Source: a virus
Taxonomy: Duplodnaviria; Heunggongvirae; Uroviricota; Caudoviricetes
Strand: one strand, 5' to 3'
Length of the DNA: 7,622 bases
IMG/VR virus record: IMGVR_UViG_2690316142_000009
Position numbers and translations under genes: made by a program. This document shows positions 1 through 7,497 of this stretch, piece after piece (the first letter of the stretch is position 1; each line of letters opens with the position of its first letter). Under the pieces are notes generated by a model. The model was given only the letters and a program-made list of their open reading frames with translations. It searched no databases and had not been told where the DNA came from.

Positions 1-34
1 AGGAAGGAGTGTCCGTTAAACTCAGGCTACCTCA
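1..34 (-). mobile_element. Terminal inverted repeat (orfA-proximal end) of a second IS3-family copy whose body lies upstream of the window
   Basis: Bases 1-34 (AGGAAGGAGTGTCCGTTAAACTCAGGCTACCTCA) are identical 34/34 to 5645-5678, the orfA-proximal end of the complete IS at 4425-5678. Identity stops at 35 (GGTTATTCGC versus AAAACACGAT at 5679). Same orientation as the complete copy. Confidence 0.6.
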
Positions 35-717: not shown

Positions 718-1464
718 ATGAAAAATATTGCGACAGGCGGCGTTCTGGAACGCATCCGCCGACTGACCCCGCCACATGTAACCGCCCCATTCAGAACGGT
801 AGCGGAGTGGCGCGAGTGGCAACTTGCTGAAGGCCAGAAACGTAGCGAGGAGATCAACCGCCTGAATCGCCAGTTGCGGGTGGAAAAAATTCTGAATCGC
901 TCAGGCATCCAGCCGTTGCACCGTAAATGCTCGTTTGCGAATTACCAGGTGCAGAACGACGGCCAGCGATACGCGTTAAGCCAGGCGAAATCCATCGCCG
1001 ATGAACTGATGACCGGGTGTACAAATTTTGCGTTCAGCGGAAAACCTGGTACCGGGAAGAATCACTTAGCGGCAGCTATCGGGAATCGCCTGCTGAAAGA
1101 CGGTCAGACAGTGATTGTGGTTACCGTGGCTGATGTTATGAGCGCCCTGCACGCCAGCTATGACGACGGGCAGTCAGGCGAAAAATTTTTGCGGGAGCTG
1201 TGCGAAGTGGATCTGCTGGTTCTTGATGAAATTGGCATTCAGCGCGAGACGAAAAACGAGCAGGTGGTGCTGCACCAGATTGTTGATCGCCGGACAGCGT
1301 CGATGCGCAGCGTGGGGATGCTGACAAACCTGAACTATGAGGTGATGAAAACATTGCTCGGCGAGCGGGTGATGGATCGCATGGTCATGAACGGCGGGCG
1401 CTGGGTGAATTTTAACTGGGAGAGCTGGCGTCCGAATGTTAGCCATTCGAGGGTTGTTAAGTAG
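718..1464 (+). CDS. DnaC-like AAA+ helicase loader (functional analogue of lambda P; compare Rac YdaV, also 248 aa)
   Basis: 248-aa ORF. Walker A-like FSGKPGTGKNHLAAAIG and Walker B-like LLVLDEIG in DnaC-like spacing. G-rich SD-like stretch (GGGGG) 9 nt upstream of the ATG. Positioned after the initiator remnant. Confidence 0.85.
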   Translation: MKNIATGGVLERIRRLTPPHVTAPFRTVAEWREWQLAEGQKRSEEINRLNRQLRVEKILNRSGIQPLHRKCSFANYQVQNDGQRYALSQAKSIADELMTGCTNFAFSGKPGTGKNHLAAAIGNRLLKDGQTVIVVTVADVMSALHASYDDGQSGEKFLRELCEVDLLVLDEIGIQRETKNEQVVLHQIVDRRTASMRSVGMLTNLNYEVMKTLLGERVMDRMVMNGGRWVNFNWESWRPNVSHSRVVK

Positions 1465-1478
1465 TTTCAGGAGGATTT

Positions 1479-1901
1479 ATGGCGAAACCTTTTACTCCCG
1501 AACAGCGGGAAGAACTGAAGACGCGAATTGTGGAACTCGTGCATCAGGACGGTCGGGTCACGATTCGGCAGTTGTCAGATGAAACAGGTATCAGTCGTGC
1601 GTCTGTCGGTCGCTTATGCATAGAACTGGTCGCAAGTGGTGATGTATATAATTCTGGCTACGGCTTATTCCCGTCTGAACAGGCTCGCAAGGACTGGCAA
1701 AGCGCCCGCAAAAAACTCTCGAGAGTAAAGGTGAGGAAACCGGTTGTTGTTGATCCGGACCTTATCTGGTCATTACCTGACGGAGAAATACGCCGCTACG
1801 ACAGGCGCCTGAATATAATCTGTCGCGAGTGCCGGAAGAGCGAAGCTATGCAGCGTGTACTGGCTTTCTATCAGGGTAATTTTCAGGAGGCGATACTGTG
1901 A
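1479..1901 (+). CDS. Hypothetical protein with N-terminal winged-HTH-like segment (140 aa)
   Basis: GGAGG SD 5-6 nt upstream of ATG 1479. HTH-like stretch VTIRQLSDETGISRASVGRLCIELVASGDV. Starts 15 nt after the DnaC-like gene and is immediately followed by the next gene. Function not recognised. Confidence 0.6.
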   Translation: MAKPFTPEQREELKTRIVELVHQDGRVTIRQLSDETGISRASVGRLCIELVASGDVYNSGYGLFPSEQARKDWQSARKKLSRVKVRKPVVVDPDLIWSLPDGEIRRYDRRLNIICRECRKSEAMQRVLAFYQGNFQEAIL

Positions 1902-1958
1902 ATGAAATTAGCTATCAGGCTTCAATTACCGCTGGCATTCGCATCAAAGGAGAGGAGC

Positions 1959-2315
1959 ATGGAAATAAAACCAGAAGATGAGTTAAGCAATATCGTTTTA
2001 TTTCCGGTAAAAGAGGATGACCCTCGTAATCAGGTTAATTTTCTTTATGAGCCATCGGAAAGACCATATTGCCATCACGCCTCTGTACGGGTTGACGAAA
2101 AAGAGCGTCAGGTCCGCTGTAAAATCTGCGGTGCGGTTGTGGAGCCGTTTGACTGGATGCTCTCTGTGGCAAAAAGAGAAACCAGACTGGCAGATGATGT
2201 AAGGCTATTGCGCCAGGAGGAACAGGAAAGGCGGAGAAATATAGAAAAGCTGATACAGATTGAGCGTAACGCGAAAGCGCGGATACGCAGGGCGACAAAA
2301 TCCAGAACTGAATAA
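1959..2315 (+). CDS. Hypothetical Zn-ribbon-like (C-H-H...C-x2-C) protein with basic, coiled-coil-like C-terminus (118 aa from ATG 1959)
   Basis: The ORF track starts at ATG 1902, which directly follows the upstream stop (TGAATG). The in-frame ATG at 1959 has a much stronger SD (AAGGAGAGGAG ending 4 nt upstream), so 1959 is preferred. Cys/His cluster YCHH...RCKICG, then an Arg/Glu/Lys-rich tail. Confidence 0.55.
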   Translation: MEIKPEDELSNIVLFPVKEDDPRNQVNFLYEPSERPYCHHASVRVDEKERQVRCKICGAVVEPFDWMLSVAKRETRLADDVRLLRQEEQERRRNIEKLIQIERNAKARIRRATKSRTE

Positions 2316-2462
2316 TTAAATTTAGCACTGTTAAAAATTTAATCCTTAACCGGAGGGATTTCTGCACCCTCAAATCATCAGGAGACCACCCGAAAGGGCG
2401 GGGAGCAGTCACACATCTGTTTCCGATAGCCCCGTTCTAATGCTACACTCTTTGATATTTTT

Positions 2463-3149
2463 ATGACCCCAATAAACATATTTATGACAGTTGCTGATTT
2501 CAAACGGCCCAAATTGGAGCTCCCAAACGGGGCAAACAAACTACTACTGCACTCTTGCTGTGCTCCATGTTCCGGTGAGGTGATGGAGGCGCTTCAGGCC
2601 TCGGGAATCGACTACACCATCTTTTTCTACAACCCGAACATTCATCCTCAGAAAGAGTATTTAATTCGTAAGGATGAGAATATTCGCTTTGCTGAACAAC
2701 ACGGCGTGCCGTTTATTGATGCTGATTACGACACAGACAACTGGTTTGAACGAGCCAAAGGAATGGAATGGGAGCCCGAACGAGGGATCCGTTGCACCAT
2801 GTGTTTTGACATGCGTTTTGAGCGGACAGCGCTGTACGCCGCTGAAAATGGTTTCAGTGTGATCAGCAGTTCACTGGGCATTTCACGCTGGAAAAATATG
2901 CAGCAGGTTAACGACTGTGGGCGGCGAGCCGTCGCGCATTATCCGGGCATGGTGTACTGGGATTATAACTGGCGCAAGCAGGGCGGCTCGTCCCGTATGA
3001 TTGAAATCAGCAAGCGCGAAAAATTCTATCAGCAGGAATATTGTGGCTGTGTGTATTCTCTGCGCGATACCAATCTACACCGCAAATCTCAGGGACGCCC
3101 TCTTATCAAAATTGGTCAACTCCACTACGGTAAAGAAGAGAAGGAGTGA
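2463..3149 (+). CDS. queH: QueH-like (DUF208) Fe-S protein, putative epoxyqueuosine reductase
   Basis: 228-aa ORF with Cys motifs [24 protein letters not shown] and YCGCVY, which I recall as characteristic of the DUF208/QueH family. No HMM run. Start uncertain: neither ATG 2463 nor in-frame ATG 2485 has an SD. Confidence 0.55.
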
Positions 3150-3204: not shown

Positions 3205-3218
3205 GCGGGTGCTTGAGG
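3205..3218 (+). promoter_or_regulatory. hok mRNA 5' fold-back-inhibition (fbi) element
   Basis: GCGGGTGCTTGAGG at 3205-3218 is the reverse complement of CCTCAACGCACCCGC at 3590-3604, apart from a 1-nt bulge. This 5'/3' long-range pairing is the known hallmark of hok-family mRNAs. Confidence 0.5.
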
Positions 3219-3261
3219 CTATCTGCTTCAGGCATGAACACCAAAAGGCAGATAGAGAAAA

Positions 3262-3328
3262 GCCCCAGTTAACATTACGCGTCCGGCAAGACGCTTAACA
3301 TTAATCTGAGGCCAATTTCATGCTTTGC
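3262..3328 (-). ncRNA. sok: Sok-like antisense RNA (approximate extent), antisense to the hok leader
   Basis: Minus-strand sigma70-like promoter: -35 TTGCCT (reverse complement of 3358-3363), 17-bp spacer, -10 TAACCT (reverse complement of 3335-3340). Transcription would start near 3328 and run antisense across the upstream ATG/leader region, as expected for Sok. 3' end not defined; no clean terminator found. Confidence 0.3.
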
Positions 3329-3376
3329 ACATGTAGGTTAGCCTCTTACATGCCGAAAGGCAAGGAGAAGCAGGCT

Positions 3377-3532
3377 ATGAAGCAGCAAAAGGCGATGTTA
3401 ATCGCCCTGATCGTCATCTGTTTAACCGTCATAGTGACGGCACTGGTAACGAGGAAAGACCTCTGTGAGGTACGAATCCGAACCGGCCAGACGGAGGTCG
3501 CTGTCTTCGTAGACTACGAATCCAGGAAGTAA
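3377..3532 (+). CDS. hok: Hok/Gef-family type I toxin (51 aa, membrane peptide)
   Basis: MKQQKAMLIALIVICLTVIVTALVTRKDLCEVRIRTGQTEVAVF... is a near-match to the Hok/Gef family as I recall it, closest to HokD/RelF. AAGGAG SD 10 nt upstream of ATG 3377. The 70-aa ORF-track entry (3320-3532) is the same frame extended to an upstream ATG. Confidence 0.9.
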   Translation: MKQQKAMLIALIVICLTVIVTALVTRKDLCEVRIRTGQTEVAVFVDYESRK

Positions 3533-4069: not shown

Positions 4070-4107
4070 ACTCCTGCTGTGTAACACCGTGCCACCGGAG
4101 AAAGCCG

Positions 4108-4424
4108 ATGGCACATATACAACTGGTCAAACAAACCTCTTCCGGATTACTTCTCCCGGCGACGCCGGAGAGTTGCGATTTTCTGCATCAAATCAAAACA
4201 GGTGAGTGGATACACGCAGACTTTAAGCGTGTGCGTAACTACGCATTCCACAAGCGTTTTTTCAAACTCCTGCAACTGGGATTCGATTACTGGACTCCGG
4301 TCGGTGGGGCGATCACGCCTCGCGAACGAAAACTGGTGTCCGGTTTCGTTGATTACCTGTGTGAATCAGTAGGCCGGGAACATACGCCAGCTCTGAGCGA
4401 AGCCGCAGAGCAATTGAGGTGTAC
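4108..4424 (+). pseudogene. DUF1367-like nin-region gene, copy 1, truncated after about codon 105 by the IS
   Basis: 4106-4424 is about 97% identical to 6055-6363 (the intact copy at 6057-6656). Identity ends exactly at the IS end (4425, TGAGGT...). The ORF then runs into IS sequence (LRCTGNSGHYHLFFF) to a stop at 4461. GGAG SD upstream of ATG 4108. Confidence 0.7.
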
Positions 4425-4457
4425 TGGCAATAGCGGACACTACCATTTGTTCTTTTT

Positions 4458-5276
4458 TTAAGCAGCCATCTGATGATATTTTTCCCTGAAGGCTGCCGGG
4501 GAGATATTCCCCAGACGAGAGTGACGACGCTGACGATTGTAGAAAATCTCAATGTATTCCCGTATTACTGAGATGGCTTCATCCCGGTTATTAAAACGAT
4601 AGTGGCTCAGGCTCTCATTTTTCAGCGTTCCCCAGAAGCTTTCCATCGGAGCGTTGTCGTAACAGTTACCTTTACGCGACATTGATGTTTTCAGACCAGA
4701 CTGCTCCTGTATGACCCGGTAATCGTATGCGCAGTACTGTGAACCTCGATCAGAGTGGTGGATTAGCCCGGCAGGTGGGCGCTGGCTCCTGAGCGCCATA
4801 AACAGGGCTTTACCTGTCAGCTCTTTTGTCATGCGCTCTCCCATGGCGTAGCCGACAATTTCGCACGTATAAACATCTTTGATGCCAGCGAGGTACAACC
4901 ATCCCTCCTGTGTGGCAACATACGTCAGGTCCGCCACCCAGACCTGATTTGGTGCTGTAGGAGCGAACGTCTGGTTCAGCAGATTTGGCGCAACTGGCAG
5001 ATTGTGGTTCGAGTTCGTAGTCGCTCTGAACTTGCGTTTCTGCTTACAGCGTAGCCTTAGCTCCTTACGAAGACGTGCCAGTCGGTCACGACCAACGATG
5101 ATGCCATTCTCTGCCAGCTCCGTCTGGAGCCGCCGGGTTCCATATGTTTCGCGAGTGCGGATATGTGCCACCTTAATCTCCAGTTTTAGCCGCTCATCAC
5201 TTTGTTTTCTGTCTGAGGGTTCATGCTGTACCCAGTTGTAATAACCGCTCCTGGATACACCAAATACCTGACACAT
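4458..5276 (-). CDS. IS3-family transposase OrfB (DDE catalytic domain), expected to be made as an OrfAB fusion
   Basis: 272-aa ORF. Its frame stays open upstream through the slippery site, and is -1 relative to orfA (manual translation: ...ILKK then SNSVFCTGVAEKYALIEQWRQQFPIEAMCQVFGV..., no stops). Confidence 0.85.
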   Translation of the reverse strand: MCQVFGVSRSGYYNWVQHEPSDRKQSDERLKLEIKVAHIRTRETYGTRRLQTELAENGIIVGRDRLARLRKELRLRCKQKRKFRATTNSNHNLPVAPNLLNQTFAPTAPNQVWVADLTYVATQEGWLYLAGIKDVYTCEIVGYAMGERMTKELTGKALFMALRSQRPPAGLIHHSDRGSQYCAYDYRVIQEQSGLKTSMSRKGNCYDNAPMESFWGTLKNESLSHYRFNNRDEAISVIREYIEIFYNRQRRHSRLGNISPAAFREKYHQMAA

Positions 5277-5311
5277 CGCTTCAATGGGAAATTGTTGTCG
5301 CCATTGTTCGA

Positions 5312-5614
5312 TTAACGCGTATTTTTCAGCGACTCCTGTGCAAAATACGCTGTTGCTTTTTTTAATATATCTCGCTCAAGGCGAGCTTCATTTAACGCCT
5401 TACGCAGTTGCAGAATTTCAGATTCCAGTTCAGCCACCGTGCGGGAACCAGGAGTACCGAGCCCTTTTCTGGCGGCGGTAACCCATTGTCCTAAAGTGCC
5501 TTCAGGAAGAGATAATCGGGAAGCGCCTTCACTGATCGAAAGTTGATTTTCAAGAACCGTTCTGACAGCTTCGGCTTTGAACTCTTTAGAGTAACGTTGG
5601 GTTTTTCTGCTCAT
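5312..5614 (-). CDS. IS3-family transposase OrfA (HTH DNA-binding / leucine-zipper component)
   Basis: 100-aa ORF starting about 30 nt inside the IS end. Heptad-like LxxxxxxL region (ELESEILQLRKALNEARLERDILKKA). Ends 15 codons after the slippery site. Confidence 0.85.
   Translation of the reverse strand: MSRKTQRYSKEFKAEAVRTVLENQLSISEGASRLSLPEGTLGQWVTAARKGLGTPGSRTVAELESEILQLRKALNEARLERDILKKATAYFAQESLKNTR
5357..5363 (-). other. Programmed -1 ribosomal frameshift slippery heptamer (A_AAA_AAA then G) joining orfA to orfB
   Basis: Minus strand reads TTA AAA AAA GCA in the orfA frame. The -1 frame from this point is open into orfB. Classic IS3-family arrangement. Confidence 0.6.
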
Positions 5615-5772
5615 TATTAGCTCCTTCTGATGCCATTCTATTTCAGGAAGGAGTGTCCGTTAAACTCAGGCTACCTCAAAAACACGATCATACACTAAAT
5701 CAGTAAGTTGGCAGCATCACCTTTTGTCTCTATGTTGATATAACCGTTTGTACTTATAAACCTGGAGGCATC

Positions 5773-5985
5773 GTGGAAAAAATAAAGAAACTATTTAGTA
5801 GTAAATACGCAGTCATACGTCGTGATGACCTGTCAGTTATAGTCGAAATGGATTACTTCCCTGAAACCAAAAAATCAATGATGTATCGTAATGGTCGAAA
5901 GGCAATTTTTTTACCGATGAGGGTAAGTGACATTATGGGAAATGATAAACTGCTGGATGAATTGCGAGTCAGAGCATCCTGTTAG
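5773..5985 (+). CDS. Hypothetical small protein (70 aa, GTG start), AT-rich, upstream of DUF1367 copy 2
   Basis: GGAGG (5764-5768) 4 nt upstream of GTG 5773. Begins about 95 nt after the IS end. Weak similarity to the 95-aa ORF at 3782. Function not recognised. Confidence 0.45.
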   Translation: MEKIKKLFSSKYAVIRRDDLSVIVEMDYFPETKKSMMYRNGRKAIFLPMRVSDIMGNDKLLDELRVRASC

Positions 5986-6056
5986 TATTGGCATTAATTC
6001 TGGTATACTACATAACGGGCTGAACACCCATTCTACTGCGCCAGCGGAGAACTACG

Positions 6057-6656
6057 ATGGCGCATATACAACTGATCAAACAAACCTCTTCCGGATTACT
6101 TCTCCCGGCGACGCCGGAGAGTTGCGATTTTCTGCATCAAATCAAAACAGGTGAGTGGATACACGCAGACTTTAAGCGTGTGCGTAACTACGCATTCCAC
6201 AAGCGTTTTTTCAAACTCCTGCAACTGGGATTCGATTACTGGACTCCGGTCGGTGGGGCGATCACGCCTCGCGAACGAGAACTGCTGTCTGGTTTCGTTG
6301 ATTACCTGTGCGAATCAGTAGGTCGGGAACATACGCCAGCTCTGAGCGAAGCCGCAGAGCAATATCTGAATACAGTTGCGACACGCAGAACCCGGGATAC
6401 GGCATTGCTAAAGTCGTTTGAGGCTTTTCGCGAGTGGGTAACCATTCAGGCTGGATTTTACACCGAACATTTTTATCCGGACGGTAGCCGCGGGCGTCGG
6501 GCAAAATCCATCGCTTTTGCGAATATGGACGAAACCGAGTTTCAGCAGGTTTATAAATCTGTTCTGAATGTGCTGTGGAACTGGATTCTGTTCCGTAAAT
6601 TTTCCTCTCCGGAACAAGTCGAAAATGTGGCCGCGCAGCTGCTGGAGTTTGCGTAA
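6057..6656 (+). CDS. DUF1367-like nin-region protein (199 aa), intact copy
   Basis: GGAGA SD 7 nt upstream of the ATG. Stop overlaps the next start (TAATG). N-terminal 105 codons duplicated at 4108-4424. Family label from memory of nin-region proteins (YbcN-like), not verified. Confidence 0.7.
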   Translation: MAHIQLIKQTSSGLLLPATPESCDFLHQIKTGEWIHADFKRVRNYAFHKRFFKLLQLGFDYWTPVGGAITPRERELLSGFVDYLCESVGREHTPALSEAAEQYLNTVATRRTRDTALLKSFEAFREWVTIQAGFYTEHFYPDGSRGRRAKSIAFANMDETEFQQVYKSVLNVLWNWILFRKFSSPEQVENVAAQLLEFA

Positions 6657-6946
6657 TGGTGGATTTACGTAAAGCGGCGCGGGGGCAGATGTGCACCGTC
6701 AGAATTCCTGGCTACTGCAATCACGATCCGGAAACGTCTGTGCTGGCGCATTACCGACTGGCGGGAACGTGCGGAACAGCGATAAAGCCACACGATATGC
6801 AGGCAGCGATTGCCTGTAGCTCGTGCCACGATTTAATCGACGGGCGGGTAAAAACCAGCGATTACACCAAAGAAGAATTACGCCTGATGCATGCAGAAGG
6901 TGTTTTTCGCACACAAGAAATCTGGAGAAAGGAGGGATATTTATGA
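6656..6946 (+). CDS. DUF1364 / YbcO-like Cys-rich nin-region protein (96 aa), putative metal-binding nuclease-like protein
   Basis: 96 aa with Cys clusters (CTVRIPGYC, CSSCHDLIDG). Same length and position as YbcO in DLP12-type nin regions. Translationally coupled on both sides (TAATG upstream, ATGA downstream). Confidence 0.6.
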   Translation: MVDLRKAARGQMCTVRIPGYCNHDPETSVLAHYRLAGTCGTAIKPHDMQAAIACSSCHDLIDGRVKTSDYTKEELRLMHAEGVFRTQEIWRKEGYL

Positions 6947-7497
6947 TTTACCCAACGAATACAGGAAAAAGCGGAGAACACCTTCGTCTCACCACGCTGG
7001 AAAGTGTCTGGATTCAGGGAAAACTACGTATGTGGGGGCGCTGGTCGTATATTGGTGGCGGTAAGACGGGGAATATGTTTAACCTGATGTTGACCTCTAA
7101 AAAGCTGACAAAAACGGCAATTAACGAGGCGCTCCGGAGGATGAAAAAAGCAGGTCTGAACAAGTCTGAACTTGAGGCTTTTTTGCGGGATATGATTAAC
7201 GGTAAGCAAAAGAGCTGGCTGGCGCATTGTACTGATGCAGAGGCGTTATGTATTGATCGGGTCATAAGTGAGGTGCTGGCAGAGCATCCAGGATTGATTA
7301 GCGTCCTTCGGCAACGGTATGAGGGGCGGGGGATGACCAAACGCAAAATGGCTGAACTGCTGAATGATGCACACCCGAAATGGAGTTTAAGAACCTGTGA
7401 AAGACGCATTGAGCATTGGCTAAAGGTGGCAGAATTTATTTTGTACAAACCAATGGTTATGGCTTTTGGTATAGAGAAAAAAGTTATTGCTTTTTGA
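6943..7497 (+). CDS. Putative late-gene antiterminator Q-like protein (184 aa from ATG 6943)
   Basis: Strong SD AAGGAGGG 6 nt upstream of ATG 6943, which overlaps the upstream stop. Last gene before a promoter-like TTGACG and a strong intrinsic terminator, the canonical Q / pR' / tR' arrangement. Assignment rests mainly on position; the ORF-track entry 6823-7497 is an upstream extension overlapping the previous gene. Confidence 0.5.
   Translation: MIYPTNTGKSGEHLRLTTLESVWIQGKLRMWGRWSYIGGGKTGNMFNLMLTSKKLTKTAINEALRRMKKAGLNKSELEAFLRDMINGKQKSWLAHCTDAEALCIDRVISEVLAEHPGLISVLRQRYEGRGMTKRKMAELLNDAHPKWSLRTCERRIEHWLKVAEFILYKPMVMAFGIEKKVIAF

Follow-up and report, generated by a model that had tools for sequence, protein, structure and literature searches.

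Ren, the product of a small gene in the early-right operon of bacteriophage lambda, was first described more than 40 years ago, and Toothman and Herskowitz reportedly found in 1980 that ren allows lambda to escape Rex exclusion. The gene lies directly 3' of P, in the order P-ren-ninB. A preprint from the Court laboratory reports that ren is co-transcribed with O and P and that the Ren and Rex proteins interact in a two-hybrid assay, and takes the view that ren is likely to take part in replication as well (10.1101/2021.04.19.439022). Here we compare with this system two neighbouring genes, called gene A and gene B below, that occupy positions 1,479 to 2,315 of a 7,622-nucleotide stretch of DNA from a tailed phage of the class Caudoviricetes (IMG/VR virus record IMGVR_UViG_2690316142_000009); this whole stretch is referred to as the window. 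Gene A proves to be a homologue of Ren itself, whereas gene B belongs to a separate phage family of its own. We consider it probable that the two are independent accessory genes of an early-right (pR-type) operon, co-transcribed with the replication genes, which have become neighbours by mosaic recombination.

Gene A is a homologue of lambda Ren

The features that bear on gene A, all on the plus strand, are the following.

718-1464, plus strand: ydaV, a DnaC-type helicase loader and the last replication gene (NCBIfam PRK12377, E = 8e-154; DnaC equivalog, E = 1.7e-91)
1469-1474, plus strand: Shine-Dalgarno sequence AGGAGG of gene A, 4 nucleotides 5' of its ATG, read from the sequence
1479-1901, plus strand: gene A (ATG at 1479, TGA at 1901), a 140-residue DUF977/YdaW/LygF protein and Ren homologue, by Pfam and PHROG profiles
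1497-1670, plus strand: winged helix-turn-helix (wHTH), residues 7-64, by helix-turn-helix profiles, AlphaFold and Foldseek
1806-1874, plus strand: C-terminal Ren motif, residues 110-132, RLNIICRECRKSEAMQRVLAFYQ, by BLASTP and hhalign

Gene A starts 14 nucleotides past the ydaV stop codon (1462-1464) and encodes a member of the Pfam family DUF977 (PF06163), which it matches with 116.5 bits against a gathering cutoff of 22.1 (E = 1.1e-33); residues 1-136 align to profile positions 1-134 of 134, that is, over the full length of the model. The same protein matches PHROG 142, 'Ren-like exclusion protein', at E = 2.7e-44, and lambda Ren matches this group at E = 1.6e-41. The two proteins share a C-terminal motif, NIICRECRKSEAMQRVLAFY in gene A and NLVFKECRQSAAMKRVLAVY in lambda Ren (residues 73-92), which can be written N-[IL]-[IV]-x-[RK]-E-C-R-x-S-x-A-M-x-R-V-L-A-x-Y. 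BLASTP aligns it with 12 of 20 positions identical (E = 3e-7), hhalign extends it to 23 columns (probability 88%, E = 3e-6), and the motif residues of gene A are invariant across 29 DUF977 sequences. Both proteins also carry an N-terminal winged helix and are encoded directly after the helicase-loader gene in a pR operon. Because the PHROG 142 profile, the C-terminal motif and the position are all shared, we regard gene A as the Ren homologue itself and not just as an occupant of the ren slot. Every DUF977 and Ren-family feature that could be tested, namely the profile, the wHTH with its C-terminal helix, and the gene position, was found in gene A.

The resemblance has its bounds. Gene A is 44 residues longer than the 96-residue Ren, the additional length consisting of an extra helix (67-83) and a low-confidence segment at about residues 85-113, and BLASTP detects no similarity between the two outside the motif of 20-23 residues. 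Unlike gene A, lambda Ren falls below the Pfam DUF977 model, and the loader encoded upstream is of the DnaC type for gene A and lambda P for Ren. In the wider sample of loci, the gene preceding a Ren-like gene was of the DUF1627 (62 loci), O (41), DnaC (34), lambda P (10) or DnaB (4) type.

DUF977 is a populous family, with 848 clusters at 90% identity. A DNA search located it at 5014 sites, spread over 3617 of the 5426 complete Escherichia coli genomes, although no more than 87 of these sites match most of the query, and the allele in the window is 75-83% identical to the common E. coli alleles. RefSeq names the protein 'DUF977 family protein' and phage records call it LygF or YdaW, of which 'LygF' is a mere label that comes from a prophage region of Salmonella Enteritidis. 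Gene A matches this family, which takes in the YdaW of the K-12 Rac prophage and the Salmonella 'LygF', over its full length and has the ydaU/ydaV-ydaW neighbourhood in common with it; the K-12 ydaW is a truncated copy (PMC9308461). A search of the literature returned essentially nothing on DUF977, and no paper was found for the RefSeq accessions of either the gene A or the gene B protein.

Structure and possible role of gene A

The preliminary description of this DNA had noted an N-terminal helix-turn-helix-like segment in gene A, which is borne out both by profiles and by structure prediction. Residues 11-54 match HTH_24 (E = 7e-6), HTH_IclR (E = 6e-5) and also MarR_2, and AlphaFold places a confident wHTH at residues 7-64 (predicted local distance difference test score, pLDDT, 91-95 over residues 11-70), followed by the helix at 67-83 and a poorly defined segment that leads to the motif helix. 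Foldseek returned only generic winged helices of the IclR, GntR and MarR kinds (probability 1.0, E-values of 5e-3 to 4e-2). We also considered a Z-alpha domain, following a weak match to the Z-alpha domain of PKZ (E = 0.0025). In Z-alpha domains a conserved asparagine and tyrosine in the recognition helix and a tryptophan in the wing touch Z-DNA. Gene A has glycine and cysteine or isoleucine in place of the asparagine and tyrosine of PKZ, and since the Z-DNA contact residues are absent we read the similarity as that of a generic wHTH.

By extension from lambda Ren, gene A would act as a small adaptor during lytic replication, one that might shield the replicating phage from abortive-infection and exclusion systems (of the Rex type and possibly of the retron type) via protein contacts, with the conserved C-terminal helix as its working end. 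Lambda Ren lets its phage escape exclusion by Rex (RexAB), and by analogy an anti-exclusion role appears the most likely one for gene A. A retron target is brought into view by a genome-wide screen, in which ydaW of the Rac prophage scored as a gene that blocks RcaT, the toxin of retron-Sen2 (10.1101/2020.06.22.160242).

The confident wHTH fold, closest to the IclR, GntR and MarR regulators, could instead mark gene A as a conventional, sequence-specific transcription factor of the prophage, and a survey lists YdaW among the predicted or uncharacterised transcription factors of E. coli (PMC9308461). We hold this to be unlikely. Gene A has neither the dimerisation domain nor the effector domain that is usual in IclR, GntR and MarR proteins; the best-conserved and family-defining part of the protein is the C-terminal Ren motif and not the recognition helix; the gene sits inside the lytic replication operon, as ren does; and no repeated, operator-like sequences were found near it. 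A classical operator-binding repressor is thus less likely than the anti-exclusion adaptor.

Gene B and its family

The features of gene B, again on the plus strand, are as follows.

1949-1957, plus strand: Shine-Dalgarno sequence GGAGAGGAG of gene B, in the 57-nucleotide spacer between gene A and gene B, read from the sequence
1959-2315, plus strand: gene B, a 118-residue protein with a predicted zinc ribbon and long helix (PHROG 1621, E = 3e-56)
1974-2006, plus strand: N-terminal motif EDELSNIVLFP, residues 6-16, by conservation in the alignment
2070-2129, plus strand: putative zinc-ribbon core, C38-x-H40...C54-x2-C57, by conservation and an AlphaFold hairpin
2145-2309, plus strand: predicted long C-terminal helix, residues 63-117, by AlphaFold (pLDDT 89-92 over residues 81-110)

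The two open reading frames of 140 and 118 residues are tightly packed and well supplied with Shine-Dalgarno sequences (AGGAGG and GGAGAGGAG), just as the preliminary description has it. An alternative start for gene B at ATG 1902, which keeps the frame open for 137 residues and is used in some phage records, was rejected. RefSeq places the start at ATG 1959; the block of DNA that the window has in common with Stx2a phages begins at about 1930 and so takes in the gene B Shine-Dalgarno sequence; and all gene B homologues, down to 45% identity, begin within 2-4 residues of the methionine of this codon. Given the Shine-Dalgarno sequence, the RefSeq annotation, the DNA homology with Stx2a phages and the N-termini of the homologues, ATG 1959 is the real start. 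A 125-residue open reading frame antisense to gene B (2035-2412, minus strand) is probably spurious, because neither annotation nor homology searches back it.

Gene B matches PHROG 1621 over residues 1-117, essentially the full length, with the candidate ligands and the ERNAKARIR motif present, and it matches PHROGs 8538 and 4865 more weakly; all three groups are of unknown function. These groups recur among its remote homologues, all 48 of which match PHROGs 1621 and 8538, and 47 of which match 4865. Close relatives make up 148 clusters at 90% identity, the named ones coming from Enterobacterales, and when 1.84 billion representative proteins were searched with a profile, 1583 relatives reached E-values of 1e-3 or below, 261 of them 1e-10 or below. 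Judged by these sequence matches, the family is large and widespread in phages; like DUF977 with its 848 clusters, it is conserved at the protein level well beyond what chance would give, and every phage record of a gene B relative says hypothetical. Pfam, NCBIfam, PADLOC and PDB searches with gene B gave nothing above threshold, only coiled-coil noise (keratin, ZapB, DivIC), and a Foldseek search of the gene B model against the PDB and BFVD gave only generic zinc knuckles at E-values of 0.29 or more. The preliminary remark that neither protein was recognised as a named family therefore holds for gene B, which has only PHROG 1621, and fails for gene A, which has DUF977 and the Ren group PHROG 142.

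The AlphaFold model of gene B (pLDDT 76) predicts an acidic, poorly ordered N-terminal third, a ribbon and a single helix. The family pattern E-L-x-N-[VI]-[VI]-x-F-P lies in this first third, in a segment with a pLDDT of about 60; the alignment of homologues shows no variation at E6, F15 or P16 and conservation of 90% or more at E8, L9 and N11, and remote members that share only about 30% identity still have the pattern. Its sequence looks like a short linear interaction motif. In the ribbon, which has a predicted beta-hairpin at residues 43-46 and 51-54, the cluster previously written C-HH...C-x2-C is present and can be narrowed down: among the 48 remote homologues C38, C54 and C57 are invariant and H40 is conserved in 96%, whereas H39 is not conserved. 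The highly charged tail of that description corresponds to one predicted helix, residues 63-117, with 16 lysines and arginines and 10 aspartates and glutamates. Leucines 84, 91 and 98 stand in heptad spacing (L84, L/R91, L98, A105), which fits a coiled coil, and the helix carries a basic motif, E102-R-N104-A-K106-A-R108-I-R110, whose family-wide form is E102-x-N104-x-K106-x-R108. The family also conserves R50, D62-P63-F64, A71, L84 and L98, and within Enterobacterales the stretch LRxEExxRRxNIEKLIQIERNAKARIRR is nearly invariant. A likeness of this helix to bZIP and arginine-rich motifs is kept only as a loose analogy, since its spacing misfits the bZIP pattern N-x7-R.

Gene B would thus resemble a Cys3-His zinc ribbon that caps a dimeric, leucine-zipper-like coiled coil, whose invariant basic E-R-N-A-K-A-R-I-R face would contact either nucleic acid or a host protein that is itself conserved. 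Within this proposal the fold of zinc ribbon and long helix is predicted by the model, and dimerisation and ligand binding are what we infer from it.

Two known kinds of protein invite comparison. TFIIB-type zinc ribbons (PF08271) share with gene B a small beta-hairpin ribbon with four ligands, but at 21.5 bits gene B stays under the Pfam cutoff of 29 and outside the family. Its ligands are spaced C-x-H...C-x2-C, with a first knuckle of C-x-H, as against CxxC...CxxC in TFIIB; the TFIIB match occurs in only 6 of the 48 gene B family members, and the best Foldseek match to a TFIIB ribbon has an E-value of 0.31. DksA/TraR proteins likewise combine a zinc module with a long helix. They have a helical hairpin followed by the finger, whereas in gene B the ribbon comes first and a single helix follows, and no DksA/TraR profile matches gene B.

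Gene A and gene B are probably neighbours more than partners

The preliminary description rightly placed the two genes in the slot where lambdoid phages carry ren and nin genes, directly after the helicase-loader gene in the early operon, and went on to suggest that a DNA-binding protein and a zinc-ribbon partner form a module there. A dedicated module of a wHTH and a zinc-ribbon/coiled-coil protein, serving replication control, transcription control or superinfection exclusion, would fit the local arrangement. The two genes share a strand and lie side by side, 57 nucleotides apart with no signals between them, and a scan from ydaV to the end of gene B shows neither a promoter-like nor a terminator-like site, so that a single transcript of all three genes is the simplest reading. 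To place the arrangement in context, 320 loci around gene B homologues were collected from viral contigs and species-representative genomes and reduced to 281 non-redundant loci, whose flanking open reading frames were classified; 272 of these had enough upstream sequence, 176 with a gene B at least 90% identical to that of the window (the E. coli type) and 96 with a gene B below 90%.

The pair does recur among the former. The gene upstream of gene B encodes DUF977 in 82 of the 176 loci, and the adjacency is seen in complete E. coli genomes too, yet in a further 76 loci the upstream gene is Ea22-like and in 18 it is of another kind, so that the arrangement accounts for 47% of the E. coli-type loci and is confined to this one closely related subfamily. 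Among the 96 divergent loci it does not occur at all: NinG (64), RusA (13) and YbcO (11) are the commonest upstream neighbours, DUF977 is absent from every one, and the same holds for phages of Klebsiella, Serratia, Hafnia, Providencia and Morganella. A sensitive hidden Markov model for Ren and DUF977 did find a Ren-like gene upstream in many divergent loci, at a median gap of 3.65 kb and adjacent in 0 of 95.

Nor do the two genes vary together. Copies of gene B that are 97-100% identical adjoin DUF977 alleles that are anywhere from 54 to 100% identical to the allele of the window, and no correlated divergence of gene B and DUF977 was found; with adjacency absent from the divergent loci as well, the pair does not behave as a conserved two-gene module. 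In E. coli genomes DUF977 occurs over twice as often as gene B. Searches with the PADLOC-DB defence models gave no match for gene B and only a generic wHTH similarity for gene A (Csa3, E = 0.0017, 16 bits), neither gene thus having a significant match.

Gene B is also at home elsewhere. In ArgO145 and other Stx2a phages it follows an ea22-like gene, between the exo/ssb genes and a DNA-methyltransferase end, and no DUF977 gene lies nearby in this pL-side region; in phages of Serratia, Hafnia, Providencia and Morganella its relatives stand amid assorted small post-replication genes; and around the remote relatives, in metagenome contigs and in lytic and temperate phages, the neighbours are runs of small early genes among which no partner recurs.

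Chimeric open reading frames that join the two proteins do exist (P0040, P0042 and P0060, in 1-3 contigs each). They consist of the N-terminus of gene B and the C-terminus of DUF977, and because this is the reverse of the gene order and the contigs are few, these apparent fusions look like deletion products. Other chimeras join an Ea22 N-terminus to gene B (P0002) or gene B to DUF1133 (P0015). Together they show that recombination or deletion in prophage remnants often has its junction in the gene B cassette.

On these grounds a dedicated A-B module appears highly improbable. The partnership envisaged in the preliminary description is not supported by the survey, in which the pair recurs solely as neighbours in a single recombining lineage, that of the E. 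coli-type prophages. At the DNA level gene B was found at 2135 places in 1679 complete E. coli genomes, always at full length and 90-99% identical while the flanks vary, which is the signature of a conserved cassette in mosaic surroundings. On this reading gene B is a self-contained cassette that shifts among early-operon sites: after ren, after ea22, or between NinG, RusA or YbcO and Q.

Several observations weigh against parts of this account. As many as 89% of the gene B copies of the E. coli type lie at most a few kilobases downstream of a Ren-like gene, as a dedicated module would also lead one to expect, and a lineage-specific functional link between A and B is compatible with the synteny. 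The similarity of gene A to Ren beyond the wHTH extends over only some 23 residues and pairwise identity is low, so that the transfer of Ren function to gene A is itself a step of interpretation; moreover, the hit in the retron screen came from the ydaW of K-12, a truncated allele. As to gene B, the predicted template modelling score of its monomer model is only 0.42, and neither sequence nor structure searches found a relative of known function.

Possible functions of gene B

The downstream side of gene B offers another clue. In 89 of 98 loci with a gene B below 90% identity, the gene directly 3' of gene B encodes a Q antiterminator, and these antiterminators fall into three mutually unrelated families (PF06323 in 45 loci, PF03589 in 25 and PF06530 in 19); in some loci, such as L014, the stop codon of gene B even overlaps the start codon of Q. 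Gene B might accordingly be an accessory of the early-to-late switch, a protein that binds nucleic acid or RNA polymerase and acts with Q or on the Q transcript. It would suit such a role that the sole fold and profile likeness of gene B, albeit below threshold, is to the TFIIB-type zinc ribbons, which bind RNA polymerase, and that its arginine-rich invariant helix, judged by sequence, resembles nucleic-acid-binding peptides.

The site just before Q, however, simply closes the nin region, and unrelated accessory genes are numerous there, ninH and ninI of lambda among them. Gene B has no linkage to Q in the window or in any E. coli-type locus, the Q gene of the window (DUF1133 type, 6943-7497) lying 4.6 kb away; Stx2a phages carry gene B beside ea22, on the exo (pL-type) side; and more distant members stand amid small early genes with no Q adjoining. 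The position of gene B before three unrelated Q families is thus the most suggestive clue to its function and at the same time what the plain end of a nin region would look like. With the TFIIB match also under the Pfam threshold, a role in the late switch seems doubtful to us, and distinctly so.

The mobility of gene B may point in another direction. A cassette for counter-defence or host takeover could be made up of gene B, or perhaps of all the variable block that follows ren; the small gene B protein would in that case use its invariant helix to neutralise a conserved immunity or housekeeping protein encoded by the host or by a prophage. Gene B is moron-like in the constancy of its DNA amid changing flanks. 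It occurs in three early-operon positions, often bracketed by cassettes of Ea22-like and HNH genes and of homologues of ArgO145 gp15/gp16, and it adjoins a homologue of Ren, whose lambda prototype counters Rex exclusion. The conservation of all faces of its C-terminal helix suggests a tight interface with protein or nucleic acid. Against this, no characterised anti-defence protein is homologous to gene B, and most small early phage genes would satisfy such arguments from position, so we rate a counter-defence cassette as improbable on present evidence.

A broader version joins these threads. The Ren-headed stretch would be a counter-defence island at the start of the nin region, and gene B would found an unrecognised class of zinc-ribbon/leucine-zipper proteins (about 1600 representative clusters) whose helix binds nucleic acid or a conserved host protein and thereby disarms abortive infection or aids the Q-dependent late switch. 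Aid to the late switch would agree with the place of gene B before three unrelated Q families in divergent phages. We offer this as speculation that we do not ourselves expect to hold, though with somewhat more hope than a guess would merit.

The host prophage

The window covers the early-right part of a defective lambdoid prophage, Rac/Qin-like in kind and riddled with IS600, from the E. coli/Shigella group. Its genes run from remnants of an O-like initiator (9-272 and 442-711) through ydaV, gene A, gene B and QueH to a hok/sok locus, a DUF1367 gene with IS600 inside it, YbcO (DUF1364) and a Q-like gene of the DUF1133 type. The closest complete genomes, FDAARGOS_943 and FDAARGOS_944 (99.7% identical), hold the same block, annotated 'ydaV / DUF977 family protein / hypothetical protein / QueH / hokD', and RefSeq contains entries that match the gene A and gene B proteins at 99-100% identity. 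The identification of ydaV is further supported by PHROG 50, 'DnaC-like helicase loader' (E = 1e-82), and by the RefSeq name, which is also ydaV.

Decay is most evident in the initiator. Window positions 1-34 are the terminal 34 nucleotides of an IS600 copy, identical to 5645-5678, and cut off the 5' end of the O-like initiator (35-711), which differs from the intact copy in FDAARGOS_943 by an insertion of two nucleotides in an A-run near 240 and by insertions or deletions of 6 bp and 10 bp. Truncation and frameshift have thus turned the initiator into a pseudogene and left the prophage replication-defective. ydaV, gene A and gene B are intact despite this decay.

A complete IS600 (4415-5678, minus strand, 1264 bp, 99.4% identical to an annotated IS600) breaks the DUF1367 gene. 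Around it lies a 300-nucleotide direct repeat of the 5' part of DUF1367 (4086-4385 and 6035-6334, 96% identical), and about 360 bp of other DNA (5679-6039, with an open reading frame at 5773-5985) separates IS600 from the second repeat copy. This layout suggests an IS-mediated rearrangement between two related prophages and not a simple insertion.

Directly after gene B, in the nin region, stands a gene for the epoxyqueuosine reductase QueH (2463-3149; Pfam, E = 1.9e-65), and the order gene B, QueH was found again in 17 non-redundant loci; being an enzyme of tRNA modification among the accessory genes of a prophage, QueH may merit a separate look. The hok/sok type I toxin-antitoxin locus that follows (3207-3532) comprises sok, which its Rfam family matches at 3207-3382 with 117 bits (gathering score 59), and, at 3380-3532, an open reading frame for a HokD-like toxin (Pfam HOK_GEF, E = 4e-23). 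The putative late regulator at 6943-7497 matches DUF1133 (E = 2e-107) and, more weakly, Phage_antitermQ (E = 8e-7), and such sequence similarity suggests that DUF1133 proteins may be Q-type antiterminators.

Implications

The locus is ordinary mosaic early-region content in a decaying prophage, a Ren homologue beside an independent accessory cassette, and nothing in it lies outside the known kinds of phage early-region genes. Both gene A and gene B are worth a test at the bench, and neither makes the locus unusual. For annotation, proteins of the DUF977/YdaW/LygF kind can carry the Ren-family label, and gene B is not to be annotated as a partner of DUF977. Gene B defines a large and sharply conserved phage family, for which our searches found no Pfam model, structure or phenotype. 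Ren-family genes mark the end of the replication module whatever the type of loader that precedes them, and their proteins are encoded in two-thirds of complete E. coli genomes. Taken together, the interaction of Ren with Rex and the recovery of ydaW as a retron blocker suggest a general anti-abortive-infection role for the Ren family.

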